A stretch of 64,000 bases of DNA from Alphaproteobacteria bacterium (GCA_965248835.1 CBDFLJ010000002.1:1120001-1184000); one strand, 5' to 3'. Shown: positions 7,527 to 40,170, counted from the stretch's first letter. Numbers and translations: made by a program. Notes: a model not told the origin generated them from the sequence alone.

Positions 7527-7532
7527 CGGGTG

Positions 7533-8621: not shown

Positions 8622-9357
8622 GCTTCCCGCCATCGGCCCCTATGCCGGGCTCGGCAGGATCGGGCTGATCTGCCCCTCGACCAACACCAGCATCGAGCCC
8701 GAGTTCCAGCTTATGGCACCGCCGGGGCTTGCCATCCACGTCGCGCGCGCCTTCCAGGACGGACCTCAGGCGCCGGCACTCTACGAGCAGATCGCGGCCA
8801 ATGTCGAAGGGGCCAGCCGCGACCTCGGCTCGGCGGGGGTGGACGTGATCGCCTTCGGCTGCACCTCGTGCACCTATTTCTTTCCCGGCGCGGTGCTCGG
8901 CGAAACAATGACCCGGATGACCGGCGCGCCCGCGGTCCTGACCGCCGATGCTGTGGTCGCGGCGCTGCGCGTGCTCGGCGCCCGGCGGATCGCCTTGGCG
9001 ACACCGCGAACCGACTTCGTCAACCGGCAGGAGAGGGAATGGCTCGCCGAGCGCGGCTTCGAGGTCGTCTCCGCCGAAGGGCTGCAACTCGGCAAGACCG
9101 CCGCCGAACGAGCCGGCATCGGCCGGGTGCCGCTCAATGCGACCTACGATCTCGCGCGCCGGGTCGACCGGGAGGGCGTCGAGGCGGTGTTCATAAGCTG
9201 CACCAACCTGCCCTCGCTCGCGCTGATCCCGCTTCTGGAGGACGATCTCGGCAAGCCGGTTGTCACCAGCAACCAGGCGACCTTCTGGCAGTGTCTGCGA
9301 GCGATGGGATCGACGCTCAGGCTCCCAGCGCATGGAAAGCTGCTTTGCGAACACTGA
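8614..9357 (+). CDS. Maleate isomerase/arylmalonate decarboxylase-like protein (Asp/Glu racemase superfamily)
   Basis: GLICPSTN, FGCTS and ISCTN paired catalytic cysteines, GKPVVTSNQA; overlaps upstream stop. Confidence 0.85.
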   Translation: MDELPAIGPYAGLGRIGLICPSTNTSIEPEFQLMAPPGLAIHVARAFQDGPQAPALYEQIAANVEGASRDLGSAGVDVIAFGCTSCTYFFPGAVLGETMTRMTGAPAVLTADAVVAALRVLGARRIALATPRTDFVNRQEREWLAERGFEVVSAEGLQLGKTAAERAGIGRVPLNATYDLARRVDREGVEAVFISCTNLPSLALIPLLEDDLGKPVVTSNQATFWQCLRAMGSTLRLPAHGKLLCEH

Positions 9358-25230: not shown

Positions 25231-25671
25231 TTACGTGCCGGCGATCGCCTCGCGCACCCGTGCGGAGTCCTCTTTCTTTTCGATCAGCGGCAGCTTGGCC
25301 TTGGCGTAGGTGTGCTTCTCCTTGAGCTTGCCGTTCTCGAAATGGAGGATGTCGAGGCCGCGCCAGCCGCCCGATCGCTCCTCGGTCTCGATCGTCAGGA
25401 GCCAGCGGATCAGTGCCTTTCCGGCGGCGACGTCGAGGAACATGTCCTCGGTGTGAAAGCGCAGCTTGCCGTAATCGCCGCGGAACTGCGGGACGAACGC
25501 CTGTTGGATCGCTTCCCTGCCGTGGTGGCGCACGCCGTGAAATTCGTCATAGATCGCATCCTCGGCGAAATACGACATCACCTCCTCGATGTTCTCGCGG
25601 TTGAAGGCCTCTGTGAAATCGACCACCAGCGCCGCGAGCGCCGCCCGGTCCGTGCTGTCGTTGGATGTCAT
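25231..25671 (-). CDS. SnoaL/NTF2-like protein
   Basis: AFNREN..MSYFAEDAIY, GREAI, GLDILHFENGKLKEK. Confidence 0.85.
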   Translation of the reverse strand: MTSNDSTDRAALAALVVDFTEAFNRENIEEVMSYFAEDAIYDEFHGVRHHGREAIQQAFVPQFRGDYGKLRFHTEDMFLDVAAGKALIRWLLTIETEERSGGWRGLDILHFENGKLKEKHTYAKAKLPLIEKKEDSARVREAIAGT

Positions 25672-26447
25672 CGTCTTTGCTCCAGTTCTGACGGGGCCGA
25701 ACCGTCCCCGGTCACCGCCGGTTCATCGCCGCGCGGCCATCGCCGGCCGAGCACGACCAGCGCATCGACCGCCACCGGATCCGCGCCGGTGACGATCATC
25801 GGGTTGACGTCGATCTGCTCGATCTCGGGGTGATCGAGGCCGATCCTGCCCAGCGCGACGATCGACCTGGTGAGCGCGGCCAGATCGACCGCCGGCATGC
25901 CGCGGATGGCCTCGAGCAGCTTGTGCCCCCTGATGCTCCGGACCATTTCCAGCGCATCGCGCTTGCGCACGGGCGCGATGCGGAACACAACGTCTTCGAG
26001 AACCTCGGTGAAGATGCCGCCAAGGCCGAACATGACCGATGGTCCGAACTGCTCGTCGCGGATCATCCCGATCGCGACCTCGCGCTCGCCTCTGATCATC
26101 TGCTGGACCAGGAAGCCGCCGGTAAACGCCGGCCCGGCGCGTTGGTTGATGGTGCGGAAGGCATCGCCCAGCGCCCTGTCCGAGCTGAGATTGACCGCGA
26201 CCAGACCCTTTTCCGTCTTATGGGTCGCTTCCGCTGCACATGCCTTCAGCACGACCGGATAGCCGAGTGTCTTTGCTGCGTCCCTGGCCTGTGCAAGCCG
26301 GCTCACCAGCACCTCACGGGTCACCGGGATGGCGTAGGCGGCAAGAATCCGCTTGCTGTCGTACTCCGAAAGCGTGCGCTCGCCGCGGGATTTCGCCGCA
26401 TCGATGACTGCGGCCGCTTGTCTTGCGGCGTCGCTTCGCCCCGCCAT
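25668..26447 (-). CDS. ADP-forming acyl-CoA synthetase beta subunit (stand-alone ATP-grasp domain)
   Basis: LSEYDSK, GYPVVLK, HKTEKGLV, D.QFGP..MFGLGG, DVNP. Confidence 0.88.
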   Translation of the reverse strand: MAGRSDAARQAAAVIDAAKSRGERTLSEYDSKRILAAYAIPVTREVLVSRLAQARDAAKTLGYPVVLKACAAEATHKTEKGLVAVNLSSDRALGDAFRTINQRAGPAFTGGFLVQQMIRGEREVAIGMIRDEQFGPSVMFGLGGIFTEVLEDVVFRIAPVRKRDALEMVRSIRGHKLLEAIRGMPAVDLAALTRSIVALGRIGLDHPEIEQIDVNPMIVTGADPVAVDALVVLGRRWPRGDEPAVTGDGSAPSELEQRR

Positions 26448-26469
26448 CGAAGCCGGTCCGGCGGCCGGC

Positions 26470-27468
26470 TCAGCCGGCCTTGCCCGTGGTCAGCACGATC
26501 TTGCCGATCGATTTGCGCTGGCCGAACAGCGTGATCGCCTTCTGGAAGTCTTCCAGCGGATAGGTGGCGGTGATCGCCGGACGGATCTCGCCCTTGACGC
26601 ACATCTCCAGGACCTCGGCGACGACCTTCTCCATGGTCTCGGGCACGTAGCGGAAGTGCAGGTCGAGCGATACGCCGGCCATGGTCAGGTTCTTGACGTT
26701 GAAATAGCCGACCTTGGCCTCGGGGATGCGGCCGGCCGCGAAGCCGATGGCGACGATCCGCCCGGCGAAGGCAAGCGTGCGGATGGCGGCATCGAACACG
26801 TCGCCGCCGACCGGATCGAGCACGATGTCCACGCCCCTGCCGTCGGTCACGGCGAAGATCTGCTCACGCAGGGACTCGCGCAGGTCGCCGACCGACAGGT
26901 CGATCGTATGATCGGCACCGTTGGCCTTCGCCAGCGCGTTTTTCTCCTCGGAAATATCCGCCGCGAGCACGACCGCGCCCTTGGCCTTGGCGATCTGGAC
27001 GGCCGCCAGCCCGACACCGCCGGAGGCGCCCAGCACCAGCACGGTCTCGCCCGGCTGATACTGACCGCGGATCATCAAGGACACATAGGCGGTGTTGTAG
27101 ATGGTCGTCATTCCCGCCCCGGTGATGAAATCGATGCCCTCGGGCAGCGGGAAACACCGCGATTCCGGAGCAACGACCTGTTCGGCATAGGCGCCGGTCG
27201 GGACGAGGACCGCGACCCTGTCGCCGACCTTGACCTTGGTGATCTTCTCGCCAATCGCGGTGACGATCCCGGCGGCGTCGCGGCCGGGAACGAAGGGGCG
27301 CTGGGGCTTGGTCTGATAAAGACCCTGCATCATCAAGGTGTCGGGGAAGTTGACGCCGATTGCGTGGACCTCGACCAGCACTTCCTGCGGTCCGGGTCTG
27401 GGGTCGGGCACCTCCTCGAGCTTGTGGCTTTCCAGCGGCCCGAATTCGTGGATGAGGACACCGCGCAC
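26470..27468 (-). CDS. NADPH:quinone oxidoreductase family (MDR/zeta-crystallin)
   Basis: GVNFPD, GASGGVG, DPVGG, GFAAG, GKIVL; probable GTG start after GGAGG. Confidence 0.88.
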   Translation of the reverse strand: MRGVLIHEFGPLESHKLEEVPDPRPGPQEVLVEVHAIGVNFPDTLMMQGLYQTKPQRPFVPGRDAAGIVTAIGEKITKVKVGDRVAVLVPTGAYAEQVVAPESRCFPLPEGIDFITGAGMTTIYNTAYVSLMIRGQYQPGETVLVLGASGGVGLAAVQIAKAKGAVVLAADISEEKNALAKANGADHTIDLSVGDLRESLREQIFAVTDGRGVDIVLDPVGGDVFDAAIRTLAFAGRIVAIGFAAGRIPEAKVGYFNVKNLTMAGVSLDLHFRYVPETMEKVVAEVLEMCVKGEIRPAITATYPLEDFQKAITLFGQRKSIGKIVLTTGKAG

Positions 27469-27799
27469 TGTTCTTGCCTCCGATCTTTCCGGGCCACCAT
27501 CGGCCGCATCGTTTTCGGTGGGCGACATCCCCGGCGGAGTGATCCACCGCGCGCGCGCACCGTTTGGTTCAAAGAGGCGGACTCTGGCTCAACGAGGCGG
27601 ATCGATCACGCCCCCAGCCCTGCCGCACAACGAAATTTCCGGCAAAATATCATCGCCATACGCGGCATGAAAGCCTCAAACAAGCGCCGCCCGAACAGGT
27701 TCGGGGACCCGCTTGACCCCGGTCGGCATCCTATCGACTATCGCGTCAATGAACGCCGGGCCGGGTTCCGGCCGAAGCGACAAGGATGGGGTAAAGGCA

Positions 27800-29395
27800 A
27801 TGGCGCAAAAGCCGGGTGGGACCAGGCCCGGGGCGAAGCACGACCTCGCCATCCCCTTCCAGTCGGTGCGCTCGCTGCTCGACCGTTACAAGGCGAGGGA
27901 CCCCGACAAGACCGCACTCTACGACCTCGACCAGGGCAGCTCGATCACCTTCGGCCAGCTCCACACCGAGGCCAACCGCATCGCGAACTTCCTGGCCCAG
28001 CGCGGGATCGGCAAGGGCGACAACGTCGCGGTGCTGTCCGACGAACGGCTGGAGAAGCTCATCCTGTGGATGGGGGTCTGGCGCGCCGGTGCGGTGGTCT
28101 GCCCGCTCAACGTCGAGATGAACATCGCCTATATCGCCGAGATCCTGCAAAATCTCGCGCCCAAGCTGACGCTCTGGCACGAGGCCATGGACGGCCCGCG
28201 GATGACCCGGGGCGTCGGCGGCGAGATCATGGCGTTCTCGACCTGGCGCCCGAGCACCCAGGGCGCGGCGGATGCCGAGGAGTTCTTCACCCGCGTTGCC
28301 GCCTGTCCCGCCTCGCCGGAACAAGGCCTCGATAACGCGCCCGAGGATATCGGCAGCATCTATTGCACTTCGGGCACCACCGACAAGCCCAAGCTGTTCG
28401 TGTGCGACCAGCTCGGACATTGGTTGTTCGGCCTGTCGACGATCGATTTCCTCGGGCTTACCGAAGACGACCGGACCCTGGAGTACCGCTCGTTCGGCTG
28501 GAACTCCGCCCAGGGGCTGAGCCTTCTGCCATGGATGCAGACCGGCTGCACGCTCTACTTCGCCAGGCGGTTCTCCGCCAGCCGGTTCTTCGACTGGATC
28601 AAGACCCACGGCATCACCTTCTCTGTCGGCATCCCGACGGTGATCAACATGCTGCTCAACGAGCCTGCCGGGGTGACGGCAAAGGACCTGCCGACGCTTC
28701 GGCTGATGAGCTCGAGCACCGCGCCGCTGGCGCCCGAGCGCTGGCAGCAGTTCGAGGATACCTACGGCATCCCGGTCATCCAGTTCTACGGCTCCTCGGA
28801 GGGCGGCTGGGGGTGCGGCAACCGGCATTACTACAAGAAAAAGGGCACCGTCGGCCCGCCAGCCAAGCACCAGGAATTTCTCATCGTCGATGCGGACGGC
28901 AACCCATGCCCGCCGGGTGTCGAGGGCGAGGTTACCCTGGGCGGTCCGCAATGCGTCGTCGCCTCGATCTCCGCCGACGGCGCGTGGGAGGATCTCCGGG
29001 GCCACCGCATCCACCTGGGCGATCTCGCGGTGATGGACGACGACGGATTCGTGACCGTCACCGGCCGGCTCAAGGACCTGATCATCCGTGGCGGTGTCAA
29101 CATATCGCCGAACGAGATAGACAACGTGATCCTGCGCCACCCCAAGGTGCTGGAGGCCGCCGCCGTCGGCGTGCCCGATCCCATCTATGGCGAAGAGGTG
29201 GTGTGCTACGTCGTCGCGCGGGCCGGCGAGTCTCCGACCGAAGATGAGATCAAGGGCCATTGCGTTCGGGTCATGCCGGAATACCGGGTGCCGAAAACGG
29301 TCCATTTCATCGACGCTCTGCCGAAGAACGACCGCGGCAAGGTCCGCCGCGACGATCTCAAGGCGATCTGGCAGCGCGACCATCCCGACGCCTGA
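27800..29395 (+). CDS. Class I adenylate-forming acyl-CoA ligase
   Basis: TSGTTDKPK, YGSSEG, GDLA, GRLKDLIIRGG, LPKNDRGK. Confidence 0.9.
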   Translation: MAQKPGGTRPGAKHDLAIPFQSVRSLLDRYKARDPDKTALYDLDQGSSITFGQLHTEANRIANFLAQRGIGKGDNVAVLSDERLEKLILWMGVWRAGAVVCPLNVEMNIAYIAEILQNLAPKLTLWHEAMDGPRMTRGVGGEIMAFSTWRPSTQGAADAEEFFTRVAACPASPEQGLDNAPEDIGSIYCTSGTTDKPKLFVCDQLGHWLFGLSTIDFLGLTEDDRTLEYRSFGWNSAQGLSLLPWMQTGCTLYFARRFSASRFFDWIKTHGITFSVGIPTVINMLLNEPAGVTAKDLPTLRLMSSSTAPLAPERWQQFEDTYGIPVIQFYGSSEGGWGCGNRHYYKKKGTVGPPAKHQEFLIVDADGNPCPPGVEGEVTLGGPQCVVASISADGAWEDLRGHRIHLGDLAVMDDDGFVTVTGRLKDLIIRGGVNISPNEIDNVILRHPKVLEAAAVGVPDPIYGEEVVCYVVARAGESPTEDEIKGHCVRVMPEYRVPKTVHFIDALPKNDRGKVRRDDLKAIWQRDHPDA

Positions 29396-29478
29396 TTCCT
29401 CCAGTGCGGCATAGCGTTTCACGCTGGTTGTAATCGAAACAAAATCTCGCTCGACGCCGCGCTATATTTTGCCTTTAT

Positions 29479-29668
29479 GGACGCGGACGGGTAGTGTCCG
29501 CTCCGCGATCCGCTGTGCGCGGATCGCTGCGCCGCCCGGTCCGGCGCGCCGGCCGCGATGCCGGGAAACAGACCGGAAAGCGCGTTGCGGTGGGTTTTGT
29601 CGACCGATCGCTCGTTTCCGCCGCCGACTAACGCGGCATCGAACCGCCCCGGCCGCCGATTAACGCGG
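29479..29668 (+). promoter_or_regulatory. Structured leader and direct repeat upstream of the UbiD-family gene
   Basis: Three consecutive hairpins, a nested long-range helix and a 17-nt direct repeat, downstream of a GCTATA -10-like element at 29461. Confidence 0.35.
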
Positions 29669-29697
29669 GCCCATGGGGACGCTTGAAGGAGAGACTG

Positions 29698-31275
29698 ATG
29701 AGCACGGCTGCAAAGGAAGCCCTCGGTGCGCCGCCCGAGGCGATCTTCGATCTGCGCAACACGCTGGAGTGGCTGAAGAGCGAAGGCGACCTGATCGAGA
29801 CCGACAAGGAGGTCGATCCGGACCTCGAGCTAACCGCGATCCAGAAGCAGATGGACGGCGGCTGCCCGATCCTGTTCAACAACGTCAAGGGCAAGCCCAA
29901 CCATCGCCTGATCACCAACCTGTTCGGCGACATCTCGGTGATCAACAAGATGTTCGGCTGGGCGGACGATACCGACCGCACCCGCAAGCTCGCCCATGCT
30001 CTGTCACATCCGCTGGCCCCTGTGGAGGTCTCCCAGGACGAGGCCCCGGCCCAGCAGCATGTCATCGAGAACCCGGCGGACGTCAATGACTACATGGTCC
30101 CGATCCGCCATACCACCTACGAGCCCGAACTGACGGTGGGCTCCGGCAACCGGGTCGTCACCGGCGAATATTTCGACGGCGGCTCCGACCTCGGATACAA
30201 CCGGATGAACTTCCGCTGGGGCAATGTCGGCACCTTCCAGATCTCGCCCGGCTCCCACATGTGGCAGGTCGTTTCCAAACACTACAAAGACGACAAGCCG
30301 GTGCCGATCACCATGTGCTTCGGCGTGCCGCCGTCCTGCACACTGCTTTCCGGTGCGGGCTTCGACTACGTGATCCTGCCCCAAGGCTGCGACGAGATCG
30401 GCATCGCCGGCGCCGTCCAGGGCCAGCCGGTCCGTCTGGTCAAGGCGCGCACGGTCGATGCGATGGCGCTTGCCGATTGCGAGGTCGTGCTGGAGGGCTA
30501 CGTCAACCCGCGCGACCGCCGCTACGAGACCGCCGAGTCCGAGGAAGCCGGCGTCCAGGGACGGTTCCATTTCCACCCCGAATGGGCCGGTTACATGGGC
30601 AAGGCCTATAAGGCGCCCACCTTCCACGTCACCGCGGTGACCATGCGCGATCCGGCGACCAAGCCGATCATCTTTGCACTCGGCGTGCACACGCTGGACG
30701 ACCACAACATCGACACGACGGTACGCGAAGCGGCGATGTTCGAGCTGTGCGAGCGCATGCAGCCCGGCATCATCCAGGACTGCGTCATCCCCTACTGCAT
30801 GACCGACTGGGGCGGCGGGATCATCCAGGTCAAGAAGCGCAACCGGCTGGACGAAGGCTGGCAGCGCAACTTCATGGCCGCGATCCTGGCGACCTCGCAA
30901 GGCGCGCGCCTGTGCGTGGCGGTCTCCGAGGACACCGACCCCTATGACATGGACGACGTGATGTGGTGCCTGACCACGCGGGTCAACCCGAAGACCGATA
31001 TCCTGAACCCGCTGCCGGGCGGCCGCGGCCAGACCTTCATGCCGGCCGAGCGGATGACCGCCGGGGATAAGGAATGGACGGCGTCGAACACCACGTTCGA
31101 GGGCGGAATGGGCATCGACGCCACGGTACCGTTCGGCTACGAGAGCGACTTCATGCGTCCGGTCTATCCGATCGAGAAGGTCACGCTGTCGGACTTCTTC
31201 TCCGAAGACCAGATCAGCAACGCCCGTTCGCGCATGAAGGGCTGGGTCCACAGCCTCGCGCGCACCGGCAGGTAA
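29698..31275 (+). CDS. UbiD-family prFMN decarboxylase, phthaloyl-CoA decarboxylase (PCD/PhtDa)-like
   Basis: GYNRMNFRWGNVGTFQISPGSHMWQV, QGRFHFHPEWAGYMGKAYKAPTFHVTA, IPYCMTDWGG and C-terminal SLARTGR match my recollection of PCD; GGAGAG RBS. Confidence 0.85.
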   Translation: MSTAAKEALGAPPEAIFDLRNTLEWLKSEGDLIETDKEVDPDLELTAIQKQMDGGCPILFNNVKGKPNHRLITNLFGDISVINKMFGWADDTDRTRKLAHALSHPLAPVEVSQDEAPAQQHVIENPADVNDYMVPIRHTTYEPELTVGSGNRVVTGEYFDGGSDLGYNRMNFRWGNVGTFQISPGSHMWQVVSKHYKDDKPVPITMCFGVPPSCTLLSGAGFDYVILPQGCDEIGIAGAVQGQPVRLVKARTVDAMALADCEVVLEGYVNPRDRRYETAESEEAGVQGRFHFHPEWAGYMGKAYKAPTFHVTAVTMRDPATKPIIFALGVHTLDDHNIDTTVREAAMFELCERMQPGIIQDCVIPYCMTDWGGGIIQVKKRNRLDEGWQRNFMAAILATSQGARLCVAVSEDTDPYDMDDVMWCLTTRVNPKTDILNPLPGGRGQTFMPAERMTAGDKEWTASNTTFEGGMGIDATVPFGYESDFMRPVYPIEKVTLSDFFSEDQISNARSRMKGWVHSLARTGR

Positions 31276-31311
31276 TCCGGCGGAAATTCCGGACAAACAC
31301 CGGACCTGCGA

Positions 31312-31341
31312 GTCGGGGCGGCCCTGCCGGGCCGCCCCGAC
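31312..31341. terminator. Hairpin between convergent genes
   Basis: Perfect 13-bp stem GTCGGGGCGGCCC-tgcc-GGGCCGCCCCGAC. Confidence 0.6.
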
Positions 31342-31345
31342 CCGC

Positions 31346-31370
31346 TTCATTCCCGCGAAAGCGGGGATGC
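31346..31370 (+). repeat. Degenerate REP-like palindrome
   Basis: TTCATTCCCGCGAAAGCGGGGATGC resembles the common proteobacterial GTCATTCCCGCGAAAGCGGGAATC repeat; single copy in the window. Confidence 0.4.
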
Positions 31371-31421
31371 TTGCACCGTGGGACAATCCGCCGCTTCGAT
31401 CGATCGGTCGGCGGCAAGCGC

Positions 31422-33002
31422 TCAGCTCGGCGCGCGCAGCCGGAAGCGCTGGATTTTGCCGGTCGCCGTCTTGGGCAGCTCGTCGAGGAAGTTGAACCAG
31501 CGCGGGTATTTGTAGCGGGCGAGCCTGTCTCGGCAGTGCTCGCGCAGATCATCGGCCAACGCATCCCCGGCGTCGGCGGCGTCATTGAGGACCACGAACG
31601 CCTCGGGCTTGATCAGCCCGTCGTCGTCGGCGCGGCCGACGACCGCGGCTTCCAGCACCTTGGCATGCTCGATCAGGGTGGCCTCGATCTCGAAGGGCGA
31701 ACACCACAGCGCGCCGACCTTCATCATGTCGTCGCCGCGGCCGCAGTTGACGAAATAGCCGTCCTCGTCCTGATAGTACATGTCGCCGGTGTTGAGCCAT
31801 TCGCCCAGCATGGTGCTGGCGGTCTTCTCCGGATTGTTCCAATAGCACTTGGCTGCGGATTCTCCCTTGACGTGGACGACGCCGATCTCGCCGGTCGGGA
31901 CGGTGTCGCCGTTTTCATCGACGATCTTGACCTCGTATCCCGGGACCACGCGGCCCGAGGTGCCGCGCTTGTGGTCGGCCTCCGTGTTGGTGATGAAGAT
32001 GTGGAGCATCTCCGTCGATCCCAGCCCGTCGAGGATCAGGGTGCCGGTGCGCTCGGTCCAGCGCCGCAGGACGTCCGCCGGCAGCGCCTCGCCGGCGGAG
32101 ACGCAGATGCGCAGCGGCGACAGGTCCGGGCGCGCGGTCTCCATGGCCCGGAGCTGCTGGGCGTAAAGCGTGGGCACGCCGTAGAAGACGGTGGGGCGAA
32201 ACGCCTCGATGATCTCGAAGGTCATCTCCGGCGAGACCCGGCGGTCGCTCAGCACGATGGTCGCACCTGCCCAGAGCGGGAAGGTCATCGCGTTGCCGAA
32301 GCCATACGAGTGGAAGAGCTTGCTGACAGAATAGACCGTATCGTCCTGGCGCAGTCCGGTGGCCGCTACTGCATAGCGCTCGGACGTGCACACCATGTCG
32401 CGGTGGGCATGAACGACGCCCTTGGGGTTGCCGGTCGAGCCCGAGGAGTAGAGCCAGAAGCAATCGTCCTCGGGCGCGCATCGGGCGGACTCGAGGTCGG
32501 TCGCGGCCTCGTCCATCAGCGCGGCCAGACCGCCCGCGCCGTCGGTCGCGAACGCATGCCTGGGCGCGTGGCCGGCCCCGGCCAGCGCCTGTTCGAGGGT
32601 CTCGGTGAACTCCGGGCTGTAGACCAGCGCCGCGCACTGCGAATCCTCGATCAGGAATCGGTAGTCCGCGCTGCGCAGAAGCGTGTTGACCGGAACCGGT
32701 ATGGCGCCCGCCTTGATCGCACCGAAGAAGAGACAGATGAACTCCGGGCTGTCCTTGACCACCATCAGGACGCGCTCGCCCGCCGCGATCCCGAGCATCC
32801 TGACCGCGTTGCCGCACCGGTTCACGCGTTCGGCAAGCCCGGCATAGGTGAGCGTTTCATCGACCGTCCGGATGGCGGGCTTGTCCGCGCGGCCCTCATC
32901 GAGATGGCGGTCGATGAACGGCACCGTGACGTTGAAGACCGGCGCGAACCGCAACGCGGCGGGGCTCACCGACGTGTCGACGATCACGGTGTTGTCCTTC
33001 AT
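31422..33002 (-). CDS. Benzoate-CoA ligase family protein
   Basis: FWLYSSGSTGNPKG, KLFHSYGFGN, SAGEALP, DGLGSTEMLHIF, LPKTATGKIQRF; GGAGG RBS. Confidence 0.9.
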   Translation of the reverse strand: MKDNTVIVDTSVSPAALRFAPVFNVTVPFIDRHLDEGRADKPAIRTVDETLTYAGLAERVNRCGNAVRMLGIAAGERVLMVVKDSPEFICLFFGAIKAGAIPVPVNTLLRSADYRFLIEDSQCAALVYSPEFTETLEQALAGAGHAPRHAFATDGAGGLAALMDEAATDLESARCAPEDDCFWLYSSGSTGNPKGVVHAHRDMVCTSERYAVAATGLRQDDTVYSVSKLFHSYGFGNAMTFPLWAGATIVLSDRRVSPEMTFEIIEAFRPTVFYGVPTLYAQQLRAMETARPDLSPLRICVSAGEALPADVLRRWTERTGTLILDGLGSTEMLHIFITNTEADHKRGTSGRVVPGYEVKIVDENGDTVPTGEIGVVHVKGESAAKCYWNNPEKTASTMLGEWLNTGDMYYQDEDGYFVNCGRGDDMMKVGALWCSPFEIEATLIEHAKVLEAAVVGRADDDGLIKPEAFVVLNDAADAGDALADDLREHCRDRLARYKYPRWFNFLDELPKTATGKIQRFRLRAPS

Positions 33003-33310
33003 CGCGACCTCCCGCCCGCTGGGCGATGCTTCCCGGGAAACCTCGGGATATCCTGTCGCGTTCGGCTCCGGCGGGCAAGCTGTCCAGCCGGAGCGCGGCA
33101 CGCTCGTCCCCGACGTGCGAGGAAATCCGATAACGCCAGCCGGGTTGACGACCTATTGGAAAACAGGGCTTTTTACGGCGGGCGGTGTCGGATTGTCGGC
33201 CACCCCAAGACCATAAGAGACACCGGGGAATACGTGCGTAGCGCTTCGCCAAGCGACAATTCGGGCAGGTGGCAGGGCTCCGGCAGGCGGCCGTGGGCGG
33301 GAAGGATGAG

Positions 33311-36280
33311 ATGACCGAACAGAGCGAACGGCAGAGGTTCGTCGGTCAGCCGCTGGAGCGCGTCGAGGACGCGGTCCTGTTAACCGGCAGGGCGATGTTC
33401 TCCGACCATTTGCCGACCCGGACCGGGACATTGCACGCGGCGATCCTGCGCTCGCCGCACGCCCACGCCGAGATCGTCTCTTTGGACACCGCCAAGGCGA
33501 AGGCGCGGCCCGGCGTGGCTGCGGTCCTGACCGGAGACGAACTCAGGGAAATCTCCGATCCGTTCCTGATCGTCCTCAGGCAGCCGATGCTGCAATGGGC
33601 GCTCGCCGTCGGCAAGGTCCGCTATGTCGGCGAGCCGGTGGTGCTGGTGCTGGCGAGCGACCGCTACAAGGCCGAGGATGCGCTGGCTTACATCGAAGTC
33701 GCGTACAGCCCGCTCAAGCCCGCCGTCGACGCCGAGGCGGCGGCCGCAGACGGCGCCCCGCTGGTGCATGAGGAGGTCGGCAGCAATATCGTCTCTACGC
33801 GCGACTTCGTCTATGGCGAGCCCGACAAGGCCTTTGCCGAGGCCGACCGCACGGTCTCGCTCAAGGTCTCGTATCCGCGCAATTCCCAGACCCCTCTGGA
33901 GGGGTATGTGGTCACCGCCGACTACGATCCGGCGACCGGGTCCTACGACGTGGCGTCCAACTTCCAGGGTCCGTACACGACGCACACCGTCATCTCGAAG
34001 GCGCTCCGGGTGTCGAGCGCCAAGCTCAGGATGCGCACGCCCAACTTTTCCGGCGGCGGATTCGGGGTCAAGGTCCAGATCTTCCCCTATGTCGTTCTGA
34101 TGGGCTTGGCGTCCAAGGTGGCGGGCCGGCCGGTCAAATGGGTCGAGGACAGGCTCGAGCACCTGAGCGCGGCGAGCGCCGCGCCCAACCGGGTGATCGA
34201 GATCGCGGCCGCGGTCAAGGATGACGGCGAGATCACCGCATTTCGCTTCGATCAGCTCGACGATTACGGCGCCTTTCTGCGTGCGCCGATGCCGGGACCG
34301 CTCTACCGCATGCACGGCGTGCTGACCGGCGCATACGACATCAAGAACCTTGCGGTCACCAACCGCGTGGTGATGACCAACAAGTGCCCCTCGGCGATGG
34401 TCCGCGGCTTCGGCGGGCCGCAGATGTATTTCGCCATCGAGCGGCTGGTGCAGCGCGTCGCGGTCGTCCTCGGGCTCGACCCGCTGGACGTGATCCGCCG
34501 CAACCTGGTCCCGGCCGGGGTCTTTCCCTACCGCGCCGCCGCCGGAGCGCTGCTCGATTCGGGCGATTTCCCGAAGGCTATCGAGATCGGCGTGGGTCAG
34601 GGCGGGCTCGAGGACCTCAAGCGCCGGCGCGAGGAAGCCCGCGAGGAAGGCCGGCTCTATGGCATCGGCTATGCCGTGGTCGTCGAGCCGGCCCAGTCCA
34701 ACATGGGCTATCTCAGCAACATCCTGCCGCGCGAGGAGCGCCGCCGGAACCCCAAGGGGGGCGCGGTCTCCAATGCAACCGTCAACGTCGATCCGCTGGG
34801 CACCGTCAACGTGACGGCGGATTCGATCCCTCAAGGCCAGGGGCACATGACGGTGCTGTCCCAGATCGTGGCCGACAATCTGGGTCTCAAGCCCGAGAAC
34901 ATCCATGTCAACCTCGAACACGACACCGCCAAGGACGCCTGGTCGATTGCAACCGGCAACTATTCCTCGCGGTTCTCTTCGTCCACGGCGGTTGCGGCCG
35001 ATATCGCGGCCAAGAAGGTCCGCGCCAAGCTTGCGCGGATCGCGAGCCAGACACTCAACGTACCGGCCGAGAGCCTGGAGTTTGCCGACGGCAAGATCTT
35101 TGCGGTCGACAACCCGGAGAACGCCATCAACGTGTACCGTGTCGCCGGTTCGGCCCACTGGACGCCGGGCAATCTGCCTGACGGCATGGAGCCCGGCGTG
35201 CGCGAGACCGGCTCGTGGTCGCCGCCGGAAATGGAGCCGCCCAACGACGCCGACCAGATCAACTCCTCTTTGACCTACGGCTTCGTCTTCGACTATTGCG
35301 GCGTCGAAGTCGACCGCGACACCGCACAGGTCAGGATCGACAAGTACGTCACGATGCACGATTCCGGCAAGCTCCTGAACCCGCTGCTTGCCGACGGACA
35401 GATCCACGGCGCGTTCGCCTGGGGCGTGGGCTGCGCGCTCTACGAGGAGTTCGTCTACGGCGAGGACGGGAGTTTTCTCACCGGGACGTTCGCGGACTAC
35501 CTGGTGCCGACATCCTGGGAGGTGCCCGAGCCGGTGGTCCTGCACATGGAGACCCCGTCCTTGCTGACCCCCCTGGGTGCCAAGGGGATCGGCGAGGGCA
35601 ACTGCATGTCCACGCCGGTGTGCATTGCCAACGCGGTGTGCGATGCGCTCGATGTCGAGAACCTTACACTGCCGTTGACCCCGGCCAGGGTCAGCGCGCT
35701 GATCCATACCGATGAGCCGCCGCCGCCCGCCGACCAGGCGGTGGAAGCAGGTGAGCGGAAGGCGACCGGACAGGTGCTGTCGGGGACAGGCGAGACCCTG
35801 GTGCCGGCCCGCCCCGAGCAAGTGTGGCAGACGCTGCTCGATCCCGACAAGCTCGCCGCCGTGATACCGGGTTGCCGCGCGCTCGACCTGGTGGGAGAGA
35901 ATCTCTATCGCGCCGAGGTGAGCCTCGGCGCGGGGCCGGTGCGCGGAAAATTCCGGGCAGATGTAGGCCTGACAGAGCTCGACCCACCGAACGCCGTCCG
36001 GCTGTCGGGCGGTCTCGTCGGGCCGCTCGGCGCCTCGCAAGGCGAAGGTAGGGTGCGGCTGTCGCCTGCTGAGGGCGGCACGCTGGTCTCCTACGACTAC
36101 ACCATCGAGATCACCGGCACGGTGGCTGCGGTCGGCGGGCGCATGCTGGAAGGGGCCGCCCGCGCATTGGTGCGGCAGTTCTTCCAGCGGCTGGCGGCAC
36201 AGGTCGACGGCGACGGGCACGGGCCGCCCGCGGGCGCGTGGTGGCAGCGGCTGCTTGCCGCGCTGGGGTTCAGGCAATGA
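33311..36280 (+). CDS. Xanthine-dehydrogenase-family molybdopterin subunit with fused C-terminal CoxG/SRPBCC domain (HmfA-like)
   Basis: GGGFGVK, VRGFGGPQ, QGQGH, GQIHG, GAKGIGEG; C-terminal VWQTLLDP..IPGC...VGGRML domain. Confidence 0.88.
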   Translation: MTEQSERQRFVGQPLERVEDAVLLTGRAMFSDHLPTRTGTLHAAILRSPHAHAEIVSLDTAKAKARPGVAAVLTGDELREISDPFLIVLRQPMLQWALAVGKVRYVGEPVVLVLASDRYKAEDALAYIEVAYSPLKPAVDAEAAAADGAPLVHEEVGSNIVSTRDFVYGEPDKAFAEADRTVSLKVSYPRNSQTPLEGYVVTADYDPATGSYDVASNFQGPYTTHTVISKALRVSSAKLRMRTPNFSGGGFGVKVQIFPYVVLMGLASKVAGRPVKWVEDRLEHLSAASAAPNRVIEIAAAVKDDGEITAFRFDQLDDYGAFLRAPMPGPLYRMHGVLTGAYDIKNLAVTNRVVMTNKCPSAMVRGFGGPQMYFAIERLVQRVAVVLGLDPLDVIRRNLVPAGVFPYRAAAGALLDSGDFPKAIEIGVGQGGLEDLKRRREEAREEGRLYGIGYAVVVEPAQSNMGYLSNILPREERRRNPKGGAVSNATVNVDPLGTVNVTADSIPQGQGHMTVLSQIVADNLGLKPENIHVNLEHDTAKDAWSIATGNYSSRFSSSTAVAADIAAKKVRAKLARIASQTLNVPAESLEFADGKIFAVDNPENAINVYRVAGSAHWTPGNLPDGMEPGVRETGSWSPPEMEPPNDADQINSSLTYGFVFDYCGVEVDRDTAQVRIDKYVTMHDSGKLLNPLLADGQIHGAFAWGVGCALYEEFVYGEDGSFLTGTFADYLVPTSWEVPEPVVLHMETPSLLTPLGAKGIGEGNCMSTPVCIANAVCDALDVENLTLPLTPARVSALIHTDEPPPPADQAVEAGERKATGQVLSGTGETLVPARPEQVWQTLLDPDKLAAVIPGCRALDLVGENLYRAEVSLGAGPVRGKFRADVGLTELDPPNAVRLSGGLVGPLGASQGEGRVRLSPAEGGTLVSYDYTIEITGTVAAVGGRMLEGAARALVRQFFQRLAAQVDGDGHGPPAGAWWQRLLAALGFRQ

Positions 36281-37104
36281 AACCCTGTTCGTTCGATTAC
36301 CTGCGCGCCGAGACGGCTGAGGAGGCGATCGCAGGCCTTGCGGGCGCCGGGGAAGACGCCCGGGTGCTCGCCGGCGGTCAGTCGCTGATGCCGATGCTCA
36401 ACTTCCGCCTCGTGGAGCCCGAGATCCTGGTCGACATCTCGGGCATCGAGGCACTGTCCTACATCCGGTCCGATGCCGACAGGGTCGAGATCGGCGCCAC
36501 CGCGCGCCAGTGCGAGCTCGAGCGCTGGCCGGACCTTGCTGCGCGCCTGCCGCTGGTGCACAAGGCGCTGCCTTATGTCGGCCATTACCAGACCCGCAGC
36601 CGCGGCACGGTATGCGGCTCGCTGGTCCATGCAGATCCCAGCTCGGAATTGCCGCTGTGCCTGGCCACGCTCGGCGGCGAGGTGGTGCTGCGCTCCACGG
36701 CCGGCGAAAGGATGCTCGCGGCGGCCGATTTCCAGGTCGGCATGCTCACCACCGCCAAGCGCGCCGAGGAGATGGTGGTTGCCGCGCGCTATCCCGTCGC
36801 GCGGCCGGGCGACGGCCACGCGTTCGTCGAGATGGCCCAGCGTCGGGGCGACTTCGCCATCGTCGCGCTTGCCGCCGTCGCCTCGGCCGACCGCATCCGA
36901 CTCGGGGTCGGCGGCGTCGCCGACCGGCCGACGGTAAAGGACTGGCCGATGTTGGCGGGCGCCGAACTTGACGATGCGCTGAACGCCTTCGCCTGGGAGC
37001 TCGGCGGTTACGACGACGTGCACGCGAGCGCGAAATACCGCCGCGAGCTGGTGCGGCGCCTGGGCCGCCGCGTGATCGAGGAGGCCAAGTCATGCCGAAG
37101 CTAG
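36277..37104 (+). CDS. Molybdenum hydroxylase FAD-binding subunit (HmfB/CoxM-like)
   Basis: AGGQSLMPMLNFR, RSRGTVCGS..HADP, RRGDFA; ATGA overlap. Confidence 0.9.
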   Translation: MKPCSFDYLRAETAEEAIAGLAGAGEDARVLAGGQSLMPMLNFRLVEPEILVDISGIEALSYIRSDADRVEIGATARQCELERWPDLAARLPLVHKALPYVGHYQTRSRGTVCGSLVHADPSSELPLCLATLGGEVVLRSTAGERMLAAADFQVGMLTTAKRAEEMVVAARYPVARPGDGHAFVEMAQRRGDFAIVALAAVASADRIRLGVGGVADRPTVKDWPMLAGAELDDALNAFAWELGGYDDVHASAKYRRELVRRLGRRVIEEAKSCRS

Positions 37105-37592
37105 ACCGCGGCGCCCGGCATCCGGTCGCCTTCACGGTCAACGGGCAGCACATTACCGGCGATTCCGAGCCGCGCATGCTGCTGTCCGATTTTCTGGTGC
37201 ACGAGCTCGGGCTGACCAGCGTCCACGTCGGCTGCGAGCACGGCGTGTGCGGGGCCTGCACGGTGAGGATCGACGGCCGCGTCGCGCGGGCCTGCCTGAC
37301 CCTCGCCGTCCAGGCCGATGGCAAGCGTGTGGAGACTGCCGAGGGCCTGGCCTCCACCGAGGGCGAGCTCAGCGACCTGCAATTGGCCTTCCGCAGGCAT
37401 CACGGCCTGCAGTGCGGCTACTGCACCCCCGGCATCCTGATGTCGCTCAGCGCCTATCTCGAGGAAGACCCGGCGCCGACGGAACAAGCCCTGCGCGACA
37501 TGCTGAGCGGCCACCTGTGCCGCTGCACCGGCTACGTCAACATGGTCCGCGCCATCATGGATCTTGTCTCGACCGCGAGAGAATCGGAATAA
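37092..37592 (+). CDS. Molybdenum hydroxylase 2Fe-2S subunit (HmfC/CoxS-like)
   Basis: GCEHGVCGACT, QCGYCTPG, CRCTGY. Confidence 0.92.
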   Translation: MPKLDRGARHPVAFTVNGQHITGDSEPRMLLSDFLVHELGLTSVHVGCEHGVCGACTVRIDGRVARACLTLAVQADGKRVETAEGLASTEGELSDLQLAFRRHHGLQCGYCTPGILMSLSAYLEEDPAPTEQALRDMLSGHLCRCTGYVNMVRAIMDLVSTARESE

Positions 37593-37643: not shown

Positions 37644-37733
37644 TGGCGGATGGGGTGGGATTCGAACCCACGAGACGCTCGCACGTCTGCCGGTTTTCAA
37701 GACCGGTGCCTTCAACCGCTCGGCCACCCATCC
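37644..37733 (-). tRNA. tRNA-Ser(TGA)
   Basis: 90-nt cloverleaf, anticodon arm CCGGT-CT-TGA-AA-ACCGG, long variable arm, GGTTCGAATCC, encoded CCA. Confidence 0.97.
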
Positions 37734-38538: not shown

Positions 38539-40170
38539 ATGGCGGATCGCGCCAGCTACGACTACATCGTCGTCGGCGCGGGCTCGGCAGGCTGCGTGCT
38601 GGCCAACCGGCTGAGCGAGGACGCGGACGTCCAGGTGCTGTTGATCGAGGCCGGCGGCTGGGACCGCGACCCGATGATCCACATTCCCCTCGGTTGGGGC
38701 GTGCTGCTCGAAGAGCGCCGGCATGACTGGATGTATTTCACCGAGCCGGAGCCAAACCTCGACAACCGAAGCATCGAATGCGCCCGCGGACGGATCATCG
38801 GCGGGTCGTCCTCGATCAACGCCATGGCTTATGTCCGCGGCCATCGGGGCGACTACGACCGGTGGCGCCAGAAGGGCTGTCCGGGCTGGTCCTATGCCGA
38901 GGTGCTGCCCTATTTCCGCAAGGCCGAGAACTGGGGGGGCGGTGCCGACGCGTTCCGCGGCACGGACGGGCCGTTGTCGGTCCGCACCGGCACCTACAAC
39001 GACGATTTCGTCGATGCCTATGTCGAGGGCGCCAGGGCGATCGGCCACAAATACACCGAGGACTACAACGGCGCCGAGCAGGAGGGCTTTTGCCGGATCC
39101 AGCAGACCATCCGCGACGGCAAGCGGTGCAGCACCGCGGTGGCCTATCTGAAGCCGGTGCTGAAGCGGCCCAACGTGAGGCTTCACACCAGGGCGCTGGC
39201 CACCCGACTGCTGATCGAGAATGGCCGCGCCGTGGGGCTGGAATACGAGCACGGAGGGCAGATGCACGAGGTCCGGGCCGAGCGCGAGGTGCTGCTCTCG
39301 GGCGGGGTCATCAACTCCCCGCAGGTATTGTTGCTGTCAGGCATTGGCAGGCCTGACGAGCTGGGCGAGCACGGCATCCGGACCGTCCACGAGCTGCCCG
39401 GTGTGGGCAAGAACCTGCAGGACCATCTTTCGGCCATCGTCAACTACAGCCGCGAGAAGGCCGGGGTCTTCCGCACCCAGATGCGGCTCGACCAGCTCGC
39501 GATGGACATGCCGCGGGCCTATCTCGCCGGCAGTGGACCGGCGACCGACCTGCCGGCAGGCGTGATGGCCTTCGTCAAGAGCCGGCCCGAGGCCGACTTG
39601 CCCGACATCCAGTTCCTGTTCCGCGACTTGCCGGTGGAGACCTATCCCTGGTTCCCCGGATATCGGCGCGCGTGGCCCGACGGGTTCGGCTGCCGTCCGG
39701 TGCTGCTGCGCCCGCAGAGCAGGGGCGAGGTCAAGCTCGCCTCCGCCGATCCGCGCAAAAAAATCCGCATCATCCAGAATTTCCTGTCCGAGCCGGCCGA
39801 TATCGAGACTCTCCGCGAGGGATTCAAACGGGTGCGCGAGGTCGGTGAGACCAAGGCGCTGGAGCGCTTCGGCGTTGCCGAGACCGACCCCGGAGTCGAC
39901 GTGACCTCCGATGCGGAGATCGATGCCTATATCCGCGCGACCTCGGCGACAGCGCACCATCCGGCCGGGACCTGCAAGATGGGAAGTGACGACATGGCGG
40001 TCGTCGACCCCGAACTGAAGGTGCGCGGGATTGACGGGCTGCGGGTTGTCGATGCCTCGGTCTTTCCCGACCTGGTCGGCGGCAACATCAACGCCCCGGT
40101 GATCATGATCGCCGAGAAGGCCGCCGACATGATCCGGGGCCGCGCGCCCCTGGCGCCGGCGGAGGTCTGA
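38539..40170 (+). CDS. GMC family FAD oxidoreductase (choline dehydrogenase-like)
   Basis: GAGSAGCVLANRL, GGSSSINAM, VGKNLQDH, HPAGTCKMG, GNINAP. Confidence 0.92.
   Translation: MADRASYDYIVVGAGSAGCVLANRLSEDADVQVLLIEAGGWDRDPMIHIPLGWGVLLEERRHDWMYFTEPEPNLDNRSIECARGRIIGGSSSINAMAYVRGHRGDYDRWRQKGCPGWSYAEVLPYFRKAENWGGGADAFRGTDGPLSVRTGTYNDDFVDAYVEGARAIGHKYTEDYNGAEQEGFCRIQQTIRDGKRCSTAVAYLKPVLKRPNVRLHTRALATRLLIENGRAVGLEYEHGGQMHEVRAEREVLLSGGVINSPQVLLLSGIGRPDELGEHGIRTVHELPGVGKNLQDHLSAIVNYSREKAGVFRTQMRLDQLAMDMPRAYLAGSGPATDLPAGVMAFVKSRPEADLPDIQFLFRDLPVETYPWFPGYRRAWPDGFGCRPVLLRPQSRGEVKLASADPRKKIRIIQNFLSEPADIETLREGFKRVREVGETKALERFGVAETDPGVDVTSDAEIDAYIRATSATAHHPAGTCKMGSDDMAVVDPELKVRGIDGLRVVDASVFPDLVGGNINAPVIMIAEKAADMIRGRAPLAPAEV

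Follow-up and report, generated by a model that had tools for sequence, protein, structure and literature searches.

In an alphaproteobacterium and many of its relatives, the gene for an orthologue of phthaloyl-CoA decarboxylase (PCD) adjoins those for a molybdenum enzyme akin to furoyl-CoA dehydrogenase, a pairing that suggests an undescribed form of benzoyl-CoA breakdown. We read the locus as the core of a catabolic supercluster that has been conserved, with two entries that would converge on one aryl-CoA, most likely benzoyl-CoA, before hydroxylation with water by the Mo enzyme, and we give this reading a little less than an even chance. CoA-dependent degradation of aromatics centres on benzoyl-CoA, for which, to our knowledge, reductive dearomatisation and box epoxidation are the only established fates; a text search of the literature found no paper on a Mo-dependent benzoyl-CoA hydroxylase. 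If the reading is true, water-dependent hydroxylation coupled to the respiratory chain would be a new branch at benzoyl-CoA, and a widespread clade of HmfA-like Mo enzymes would gain a function.

Gene content and layout of the locus

The window, that is, the whole stretch of 64,000 nucleotides that was analysed, contains the six adjacent genes claimed in the initial annotation. Gene calls and domain searches confirmed them at their position, all with a strong third-position GC bias (Table 1); the start given there, 27800, falls just within the first gene, LIG1, which begins at 27713. The claim of at least three transcription units also held, as three transcription directions were seen. A fourth unit, on the minus strand just upstream of LIG1, comprises QOR, ATP-grasp_5 and SnoaL2 genes that in relatives are part of the same cluster. 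The likely start of PCD is the ATG at 29699, which is preceded by the word GGAGAG. Downstream of the small Mo subunit the window holds a tRNA gene, a SnoaL_4 gene and a GMC oxidoreductase gene; a GMC homologue (55% identical) directly adjoins the small Mo subunit in one other genome (G033) and is absent from the other loci viewed.

Table 1. Features of the cluster and its borders, in window coordinates
Feature	Coordinates	Strand	Evidence or remark
SnoaL2 (NTF2-like) protein	25231..25671	-	Pfam SnoaL_2; last gene of upstream minus-strand unit
ATP-grasp_5 protein, beta part of ADP-forming acyl-CoA synthetase	25668..26447	-	Pfam PF13549, 220 bits
QOR, PIG3-type NAD(P)H quinone oxidoreductase	26470..27528	-	TIGR02824, 254.8 bits, below cut-off of 296.8
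LIG1, AMP-forming acyl-CoA ligase	27713..29395	+	Pfam AMP-binding and AMP-binding_C
UbiD gene, PCD orthologue	29683..31275	+	Three UbiD domains; 884.5 bits to solved PCD
BCL_Mo, benzoate-CoA-ligase-family aryl-CoA ligase	31422..33101	-	TIGR02262, 599.6 bits
Mo large subunit, C-terminal CoxG (SRPBCC) fused	33269..36280	+	Hammerhead (Ald_Xan_dh_C), MoCoBD_1, MoCoBD_2, COXG
FAD-binding medium subunit, 288 aa	36238..37104	+	Pfam FAD_binding_5 and CO_deh_flav_C
2Fe-2S small subunit	37092..37592	+	Pfam Fer2_2 and Fer2
tRNA-Ser (TGA), right-hand cluster boundary	37644..37733	-	ARAGORN; Rfam tRNA, 61.4 bits
GMC oxidoreductase, possible accessory gene (weak evidence)	38539..40170	+	Choline-dehydrogenase subfamily NF002550, 637 bits, above cut-off

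Decarboxylase, ligases and molybdenum hydroxylase

The UbiD gene, initially described as PCD-like, proved to be a close relative of the solved phthaloyl-CoA decarboxylase (PDB 8pmk and 8oz5; 884.5 bits, E 2e-265). The alignment is ungapped over 509 residues (22-530 against 19-527 of 8pmk), the next-best solved relative reaches 149 bits, and the N-terminal, rift-related and C-terminal UbiD domains (PF20695, PF01977 and PF20696) all score above their cut-offs. At 22 positions that discriminate it from the box-linked paralogue, compared by eye against the alignment to the solved enzyme, PCD carries the majority and solved-PCD residue in 16. The Mo-linked PCD is the conservative copy, with residues common to the solved enzyme and 73 other PCDs and a short branch (0.035) to its clade. 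It is predicted to decarboxylate phthaloyl-CoA to benzoyl-CoA, and the solved-type residues at these 16 positions make the conversion of o-phthalate to benzoyl-CoA the simplest reading. A domain search found no UbiX gene in the window cluster; the single UbiX gene of the genome lies about 740 kb away (C2:1889332-1889877; 236 bits, above cut-off), so that a supply of prenylated flavin exists, though unlinked.

LIG1 is a candidate phthalate-CoA ligase. Its best solved relatives activate dicarboxylates (oxalate-CoA ligase, 196 bits; malonyl-CoA synthetase, 167 bits), and its orthologues (73-86% identity) immediately precede PCD in 11 loci; those of family f3 (62-75%) are found 6-8 kb upstream of it. 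In CoA-dependent o-phthalate degradation, as outlined in passages of the review PMC13040137, succinyl-CoA:phthalate CoA-transferase or phthalate-CoA ligase acts first, and PCD with UbiX then yields benzoyl-CoA. The locus shares with this pathway the PCD orthologue and, with its variant in sulfate reducers in the same passages, a gene of an ATP-dependent ligase family directly upstream of PCD. Unlike the known phthalate clusters, which in those passages all have UbiX, the window cluster is without it; its host differs as well, being an alphaproteobacterium with box genes in which no reductase B subunit was found, and so do the neighbours of PCD, an HmfABC-like enzyme and a second aryl-CoA ligase.

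That second ligase, BCL_Mo, exceeds the cut-off of the benzoate-CoA ligase model TIGR02262 (375.25 bits). All characterised members of this family known to us act on benzoates. Among solved relatives, anthranilate-CoA ligase (4wv3, 457 bits) leads benzoate-CoA ligase (2v7b, 454 bits) by 3 bits. BCL_Mo carries the motif KLFHSYGFGN where 2v7b, 4eat and the box-linked paralogues read KLFFAYGLGN; in f1 and f3 no BCL linked to PCD or Mo genes departs from the His-Ser form, which is fixed in 10 of 10 further copies checked. We take this stretch to line the acyl pocket, and if it does, the change points to an acid more polar than benzoate, which counts against benzoyl-CoA and leaves a substituted analogue in play as an alternative substrate. 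The same architecture could then serve a substituted or heteroaromatic ortho-dicarboxylate for LIG1 and PCD, with BCL_Mo activating the matching polar monocarboxylate (a hydroxy- or aminobenzoate, or an N-, O- or S-heteroaromatic acid) and the Mo enzyme hydroxylating the thioester, a scheme close to the initial proposal that we consider unlikely. Besides the replacement of Phe-Ala by His-Ser and the narrow lead of anthranilate-CoA ligase among the solved relatives of BCL_Mo, it would suit the two parallel gene sets of f3 genomes (LIG1, PCD, BCL_Mo and Mo genes; LIG1-like ligases, a second PCD, BCL_box and boxBC), which look like two pathways for two substrates, and the five-membered heteroaromatic thioester used by the Mo enzyme's nearest physiologically supported relatives. 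It fits poorly with the conservative nature of the Mo-linked PCD, with the switch of ligase partner from the HmfD type to the benzoate-CoA-ligase family, and with the HpaB and DOPA-dioxygenase-like genes of relatives, which suit a 4-substituted phenol and a catechol. As for the furan, thiophene or pyridine substrates initially put forward, no positive evidence was found at the locus.

The Mo large subunit matches the HmfA proteins of named hmfABCDE clusters at 53-58% identity and shares with them the L-M-S gene order and the fused CoxG domain (residues 841-979, Pfam), which upholds its description as HmfABC-like; loci L162, L163 and L164 have the same layout, in which the CoxG-bearing large subunit is about 1000 aa long. 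The clade goes under the name 2-furoyl-CoA dehydrogenase in at least one source. In a quick LG+G4 tree rooted on four paralogues, the subunit falls in a BCL-linked clade of 36 rows (SH-aLRT 95), nested in a clade of 50 rows (SH-aLRT 100) that arises from an hmf-type grade, and not among the hmfABCDE large subunits. This HmfA-derived clade is paired with a BCL-type ligase, not with HmfD and HmfE. We infer that the enzyme is an HmfA-like aryl-CoA hydroxylase, with its substrate predicted.

According to passages of PMC3223595 and PMC8091172, hmfABCDE, together with hmfFGH, encodes the pathway by which Cupriavidus basilensis and other Proteobacteria degrade furoate and HMF, with a UbiD decarboxylase and a GMC oxidoreductase feeding in from the dicarboxylate, and the hmfABCDE order is kept in 85 of 99 genomes in the latter source. 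The window resembles this system in its three-subunit Mo hydroxylase, in a CoA ligase that would make the Mo enzyme's substrate thioester, and in the presence of UbiD and GMC genes. It departs from it in that its ligase is of the benzoate-CoA-ligase family and divergently transcribed, where the HmfD-type ligase sits downstream of hmfC; no enoyl-CoA hydratase gene of the HmfE type was found in the window cluster; decarboxylation is predicted to act on the CoA ester (PCD type) and not on the free acid (HmfF type); the large subunit belongs to a separate derived clade; and relatives of the window add synthetase or thioesterase, HpaB and dioxygenase genes.

Two other identities were considered and rejected. 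The equivalog models of 4-hydroxybenzoyl-CoA reductase were missed for all three subunits (alpha 357.8 against 994.6 bits, TIGR03194; beta 59.2 against 404.6; gamma 152.7 against 257.8), and the medium subunit matches the beta model at model positions 5-115 only. The CoxL model of aerobic Mo-Cu carbon monoxide dehydrogenase was also missed (TIGR02416, 430 against 991 bits), and the CoxL active-site loop signatures are absent from the large subunit. 4-Hydroxybenzoyl-CoA reductase (PDB 1rm6) remains a useful comparison: it belongs to the same xanthine-oxidase family, binds a benzoyl-CoA-type thioester and interconverts C4-H and C4-OH, the reverse of the reaction proposed here. The similarity to 1rm6 amounts to 238.6 bits, and the fused CoxG points to a quinone acceptor rather than the low-potential donor of the reductase. 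According to PMC12202499, CoxG is a quinone-binding electron outlet of Mo-CODH.

Linkage across genomes

Searches of this genome gave 69 matches for the Mo large subunit and 20 for the UbiD gene, and with so many paralogues of both families adjacency within 4 kb could arise by chance at a rate that is not negligible (rough estimate ~0.1); it is conserved synteny that lifts the finding above chance. The Mo orthologue is present in 41 of 78 genomes of the order, 30 of which carry it on one contig with PCD, and in 27 of these 30 the two lie at most 15 kb apart. Across the 41 genomes, PCD is within 4 kb in 19, at 7-15 kb in eight, beyond 30 kb in three, on another contig in nine and not found in two. 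The linkage spans two families, with identities down to 72-76% for PCD and 70-75% for the Mo large subunit. Because the compared genomes are relatives, the counts are not independent. The initial annotation had allowed for coincidence and named missing linkage elsewhere as a finding that would tell against its proposal; with the genes kept together across two families of the order, the linkage is not coincidental.

Outside the order, most PCD genes are unlinked to Mo genes. Among 80 PCD loci, eight showed the full arrangement and 69 had no LIG1, BCL or Mo orthologues within the flanks covered; of the other three, two (L002 and L010) reach a contig edge just after PCD and one (L003) has LIG1-PCD only. 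PCD also occurs without a Mo orthologue in families f2 and f4, and although BCL_Mo orthologues adjoin Mo genes in 27 of 78 metagenome loci, 25 of these 27 have no PCD within 10 kb of the Mo module; these observations, like the 69 unlinked PCD loci, count against our preferred reading. In 18 sampled loci outside Mo linkage, PCD was accompanied by family III CoA-transferases in seven and by other ligases in five. PCD orthologues are near-universal in the order, with 68 of its 78 genomes carrying one, and relatives of at least 78% identity stand under record titles from several other phyla. So wide a distribution seems hard to reconcile with a purely recent xenobiotic trait and would widen the view of phthalate degradation.

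This scatter would fit two independent modules that travel together, LIG1 and PCD supplying the box pathway, BCL_Mo and the Mo enzyme degrading an unrelated aromatic acid, and their linkage reflecting shared ancestry or a catabolic island, an explanation that we regard as rather unlikely. An aerobic hybrid route for phthalate through box is known. A full box cluster that includes a canonical BCL is present in this genome and in most others of the order (BoxB in 70 of 78 genomes) and already offers benzoyl-CoA a route there, a point that also counts against our preferred reading. The occurrence of PCD without Mo genes in f2, f4 and other phyla, the Mo module standing alone in many metagenome loci, the crowding of the genome with paralogues, and the several transcription units, with no shared regulator gene seen at the locus, fit such independence as well. 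Against it, the linkage survives rearrangements in two families, and in one genome (G020) BCL_Mo is still with PCD and LIG1 although the Mo genes have moved 84 kb away. In three genomes that carry PCD-BCL-MoLMS (G026, G027 and G028; 99%, 94% and 86% complete), BoxB, BoxC and Oah all lacked a match above cut-off, and a reductase B subunit was not found either. In f3, moreover, the canonical PCD accompanies the Mo cluster, and it is a divergent second copy that lies by boxBC.

Proposed route and accessory genes

In the preferred reading, LIG1 would convert o-phthalate to phthaloyl-CoA, from which the PCD orthologue, with prenylated flavin from the unlinked UbiX, would form benzoyl-CoA; BCL_Mo would make the same thioester from the free monocarboxylate. 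The Mo enzyme would then add a water-derived hydroxyl, probably para to the thioester, by analogy with C5 attack on furoyl-CoA and with the reverse of the 4-hydroxybenzoyl-CoA reductase reaction, and electrons would pass from 2Fe-2S to FAD and, via the fused CoxG domain, to quinone. Removal of the thioester could fall in relatives to a 4HBT-type thioesterase or, with possible recovery of ATP, to an ADP-forming acyl-CoA synthetase, after which an HpaB-type enzyme would hydroxylate the 4-substituted phenol and an extradiol dioxygenase open the ring. The window itself encodes together only the steps up to Mo hydroxylation, plus an orphan synthetase beta subunit. Relatives' loci contain synthetase alpha and beta genes in six cases and a 4HBT_2 thioesterase gene in 11; their HpaB gene is nearest to 4-hydroxyphenylacetate 3-hydroxylase (2yyg, 370 bits), and their extradiol enzyme is 4,5-DOPA-dioxygenase-like (231 bits). 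Taken to its full length, the scheme would be a third benzoyl-CoA route, with phthalate entering via ligase and PCD, C4 hydroxylation with water, electrons to quinone via CoxG, ATP via the ADP-forming synthetase, and 4-hydroxybenzoate passing through protocatechuate to extradiol cleavage; in this complete form we think it possible but doubtful.

Transient CoA activation has a parallel in 4-chlorobenzoate dehalogenation, in which a ligase, a dehalogenase and a thioesterase act in turn: CoA activation opens the para carbon to nucleophilic attack, and a 4HBT-type thioesterase frees 4-hydroxybenzoate. The leaving group here would instead be hydride to molybdenum, not chloride, and the enzyme family is wholly different.

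The Mo enzyme might also act upstream of the decarboxylase, with BCL_Mo activating 2-formylbenzoate and the Mo enzyme oxidising the aldehyde, so that PCD would receive phthaloyl-CoA. Aldehyde oxidation is common among enzymes of the xanthine-oxidase family, a polar BCL_Mo pocket could hold an ortho-formyl group, and a GMC oxidoreductase is nearby. We nevertheless hold this order of steps to be highly improbable, since it accounts neither for what comes after the Mo genes in relatives (genes for a synthetase or thioesterase, HpaB and a dioxygenase) nor for loci in which BCL, Mo genes and thioesterase stand alone as a trio, and box-less genomes would still need a sink for benzoyl-CoA.

Under the benzoyl-CoA scheme that we prefer, QOR, SnoaL2 and the orphan ATP-grasp_5 fit no step, which counts against it. 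SnoaL2 orthologues (65-89% identity) occupy the same place in 12 loci (L001-L010, L012 and L125) and also lie beside BCL-MoLMS in L112 and L117, and QOR orthologues (54-86%) accompany BCL-MoLMS in loci from f1, f3 and metagenomes. ATP-grasp_5 has no adjoining alpha partner in the window; in f3 genomes and five other loci (L098, L101, L105, L106 and L110) it stands between QOR and a CoA_binding/Succ_CoA_lig alpha subunit. The nearest synthetase alpha gene that this genome has (51% identity) is located at C1:55516, where it adjoins a gene for a 4HBT_2 thioesterase. An alpha/beta hydrolase gene adjoins PCD in f3 loci and in L110.

Gene content of the cluster and its decarboxylase

The six adjacent genes proposed in the initial annotation were all supported by ORFs backed by GC3 and by Pfam and NCBIfam scans. 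A tRNA-Ser gene lies directly 3′ of the last of them, and the wider neighbourhood consists of housekeeping genes (among them SHMT, NrdR, riboflavin genes and H+-pyrophosphatase).

Features of the cluster, with positions in the window
Feature	Position	Strand	Basis or remark
LIG1, AMP-forming ligase, candidate phthalate-CoA ligase	27713-29395	+	ORF GC3, Pfam/NCBIfam
PCD, UbiD-family decarboxylase	29683-31275	+	ORF GC3, Pfam/NCBIfam
BCL, benzoate-CoA-ligase family	31422-33101	-	TIGR02262, 599.6 bits against a cut-off of 375
Mo hydroxylase large subunit	33269-36280	+	C-terminal CoxG (SRPBCC) domain, residues 841-979
Mo hydroxylase FAD subunit	36238-37104	+	ORF GC3, Pfam/NCBIfam
Mo hydroxylase 2Fe-2S subunit	37092-37592	+	ORF GC3, Pfam/NCBIfam
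Quinone oxidoreductase (QOR), ATP-grasp_5 and SnoaL2 genes	25231-27528	-	Upstream of LIG1

The ATP-grasp_5 gene (25668-26447) has no alpha partner in the window; the nearest alpha gene, 51% identical, is on the other contig (G000:C1:55516-57400), where it adjoins a 4HBT_2 thioesterase gene (58% identical). Elsewhere in the window, positions 7530-9357 hold a gene for a ring-opening amidohydrolase of the AtzD/TrzD type and, after it, one resembling arylmalonate decarboxylase; the pair adjoins a fused TRAP transporter and a binding protein.

PCD matched the solved phthaloyl-CoA decarboxylase (PDB 8pmk, 8oz5) over 509 residues without gaps (884.5 bits, E 2e-265), while its next solved relative reached only 149 bits, which bears out the earlier description of a PCD-like decarboxylase. 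A scan using one genome per species returned 411 relatives, the best 80 of which were 78-95% identical, with record titles spread over several phyla. Among 18 loci sampled from those best 80 of 411, a family III CoA-transferase adjoined PCD in seven and an AMP-forming ligase in five, matching the two modes of phthalate activation described in the review PMC13040137. UbiX was present in 2 of the 18 loci; in the window's genome it is a single gene distant from the cluster. Within the order, PCD was found in 68 of 78 genomes, including 42 of the 43 of high quality. Such a near-core distribution is surprising for an enzyme associated with the degradation of xenobiotic phthalate. A second ligase-UbiD pair in the window's genome (L166, G000:C2:1661024-1664036), whose members share about 37% identity with LIG1 and PCD respectively, may be another dicarboxyl-CoA decarboxylase system.

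The molybdenum hydroxylase and its accompanying genes

Over 100 proteins, each some 990 aa long and with a CoxG domain, were 64-91% identical to the window's Mo large subunit, and some of them are labelled 2-furoyl-CoA dehydrogenase in one source. The hmfABCDE clusters on named plasmid records of Cupriavidus pinatubonensis, Dinoroseobacter shibae (pDSHI01) and Azospirillum oryzae encode large subunits 53-58% identical to the window's, in keeping with the HmfABC-like hydroxylase that had been proposed. Furoate or furfural use is reported for strains of these three species in PMC3223595 and PMC8091172. Carbon monoxide dehydrogenase, 4-hydroxybenzoyl-CoA reductase and xanthine dehydrogenase were rejected as assignments, all scoring far under the cut-offs.

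In a quick tree of 75 large-subunit rows (LG+G4), hmf-type sequences formed a basal grade and the window's sequence fell inside a derived 50-row clade (SH-aLRT 100), within which the large subunits linked to a BCL-type ligase made up 36 rows (SH-aLRT 95). The hmfABCDE clusters have an HmfD-type ligase downstream, whereas the window's Mo genes are accompanied by a BCL-type ligase. Across 78 metagenome loci, a BCL orthologue (51-71% identical) stood beside the Mo genes in 27 and an HmfD-type ligase took its place downstream in 14; both of the two loci of the latter kind checked with Pfam contained an enoyl-CoA hydratase. Because of its separate derived clade and its BCL-type partner, the Mo enzyme is predicted from sequence to be HmfABC-like in action but to fall outside the furoyl-CoA orthologue group. 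In two further loci of the window's genome, L165 (G000:C1:751521-757211) and L169 (G000:C2:453449-458823), Mo genes in the L-M-S subunit order stand with a ligase of the acyl- or aryl-CoA type; the ligase of one belongs to the TIGR02262 family (553 bits), and the other has a large subunit without CoxG that is 47% identical to the window's.

In relatives, the BCL and Mo genes came with one of two systems for removing the thioester: a 4HBT_2 thioesterase, or an ADP-forming acyl-CoA synthetase (alpha and ATP-grasp_5 beta) together with QOR and a monooxygenase of the HpaB family. The HpaB of genome G033 was nearest to 4-hydroxyphenylacetate 3-hydroxylase (370 bits), and the gene beside it encodes an extradiol enzyme resembling 4,5-DOPA dioxygenase (231 bits). 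An Amidohydro_2 gene lay 3′ of the small Mo subunit in loci L105 and L106 and in genome G026. Such a module would activate its substrate, hydroxylate it and remove the thioester, after which the product would be processed like a 4-substituted phenol. The G033 cluster has, next to QOR at its margin (L174:1-744), an aldehyde-ferredoxin-oxidoreductase-family gene of which only the N-terminal domain was observed, the locus being cut there.

Linkage of the decarboxylase and hydroxylase genes

The initial annotation had allowed that the linkage might be coincidental and had proposed a synteny survey. With 10-kb flanks, the arrangement LIG1-PCD-BCL-Mo appeared in only 8 of 80 PCD loci, none of these partners in 69 of the 80, and PCD in only 2 of 78 Mo loci. 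We surveyed 78 whole genomes of the order, taking at least 70% identity as the threshold for a Mo orthologue; BoxB, of the epoxidation route for benzoyl-CoA, occurred in 70 and a Mo orthologue in 41 (families f1 and f3). Of these 41 genomes, 27 had PCD within 15 kb of the Mo genes, 19 of them at no more than 4 kb and 8 at a distance of 7-15 kb. PCD and the Mo genes shared a contig but lay over 30 kb apart in 3 and occupied separate contigs in 9, and PCD went undetected in 2. The f3 loci examined had the complete set: LIG1 orthologues (62-75% identity), PCD with an alpha/beta hydrolase gene, BCL and the Mo genes, followed by HpaB, the synthetase and QOR. In genome G020, the Mo genes were 84 kb away and BCL was still with PCD and LIG1.

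PCD-Mo linkage is thus conserved in the window's order. That two modules merely travel together is somewhat unlikely; the sparse 10-kb counts would suit it, and the linkage counts are not independent because the genomes compared are relatives, while the arrangement survives divergence to 72-76% identity in PCD and 70-75% in the Mo large subunit, as well as several rearrangements. Adjacency in the window's genome alone is weak evidence because both families are many-copied there: at 50% coverage or more, tblastn matched the Mo large subunit 69 times and the UbiD gene 20 times in 4.9 Mb, an unusually large expansion of both. Locus L110 was dropped as an independent juxtaposition, since by the order-wide data it may belong to f3. 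Transposase or IS21-type genes were observed within or beside the cluster in L003 (G022) and L004, and 37.5 kb separates the Mo genes from PCD in G022.

A further, divergent PCD copy is present in the f3 genomes, at 69-72% identity to that of the window. It lies near boxBC, 6-10 kb from boxB, in the company of a canonical BCL and two ligases resembling LIG1 at 37-44% identity (L187, L188 and L189, from G046, G033 and G037). At the 22 positions separating the two copies, the Mo-linked copy agreed with the other 73 PCDs, and the solved PCD, compared by eye, sided with the Mo-linked copy at 16, with the box-linked copy at 3 and with neither at the remaining 3. It is thus the canonical PCD that has stayed beside the Mo genes.

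Candidate mechanism and its proposed shared intermediate

The most parsimonious mechanism, which we favour tentatively at a little short of an even chance, is that phthalate and a free acid converge on benzoyl-CoA, which is then hydroxylated by the Mo enzyme. Phthalate would reach benzoyl-CoA through LIG1 and PCD, and the free acid through BCL. The HmfABC-like enzyme would then hydroxylate benzoyl-CoA, probably in the para position, with water as the oxygen source and a quinone as electron acceptor, CoxG being described in PMC12202499 as a quinone-binding electron outlet. Three genomes, G026, G027 and G028 (99%, 94% and 86% complete), carry PCD-BCL-Mo; none of BoxB, BoxC and Oah scored above cut-off in them, and neither a reductase B subunit nor any other consumer of the PCD product was seen. 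Two sister genomes of their genus have BoxB and BoxC. A reversed order, with the Mo enzyme acting ahead of PCD, appears very improbable.

The ligase pocket bears on the identity of the intermediate. Every BCL copy linked to PCD or Mo genes in f1 and f3 has KLFHSYGFGN, in a stretch that we take to line the acyl pocket, whereas solved benzoate-CoA ligases (2v7b, 4eat) and all box-linked paralogues have KLFFAYGLGN. In more distant copies linked to Mo genes, the motif is KLFFS(Y/F)GFG(N/G), which resembles the corresponding part of the solved anthranilate-CoA ligase. The KLFHSYGFGN motif speaks against benzoyl-CoA as the shared intermediate, and a second benzoyl-CoA route would be redundant in the window's genome because it has its own boxC, boxB and canonical BCL. 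The motif would fit the same architecture acting on a polar analogue, a reading that we nevertheless consider unlikely given the closeness of PCD to the phthaloyl-CoA enzyme. Literature searches found no paper on a benzoyl-CoA hydroxylase or dehydrogenase, primary phthalate papers lying outside their reach, and none on thiophene-2-carbonyl-CoA.

Among regulatory signals, a search for an operator word common to the four intergenic regions gave only chance-sized 10-11-mers, promoter and terminator scans gave no signal exceeding shuffles, and the tRNA was the sole Rfam match above its family's gathering score. The LIG1-PCD spacer (29396-29698, about 300 bp), with no RNA family above its gathering score, contains two hairpin-like inverted repeats and two occurrences of a word of about 17 nt.
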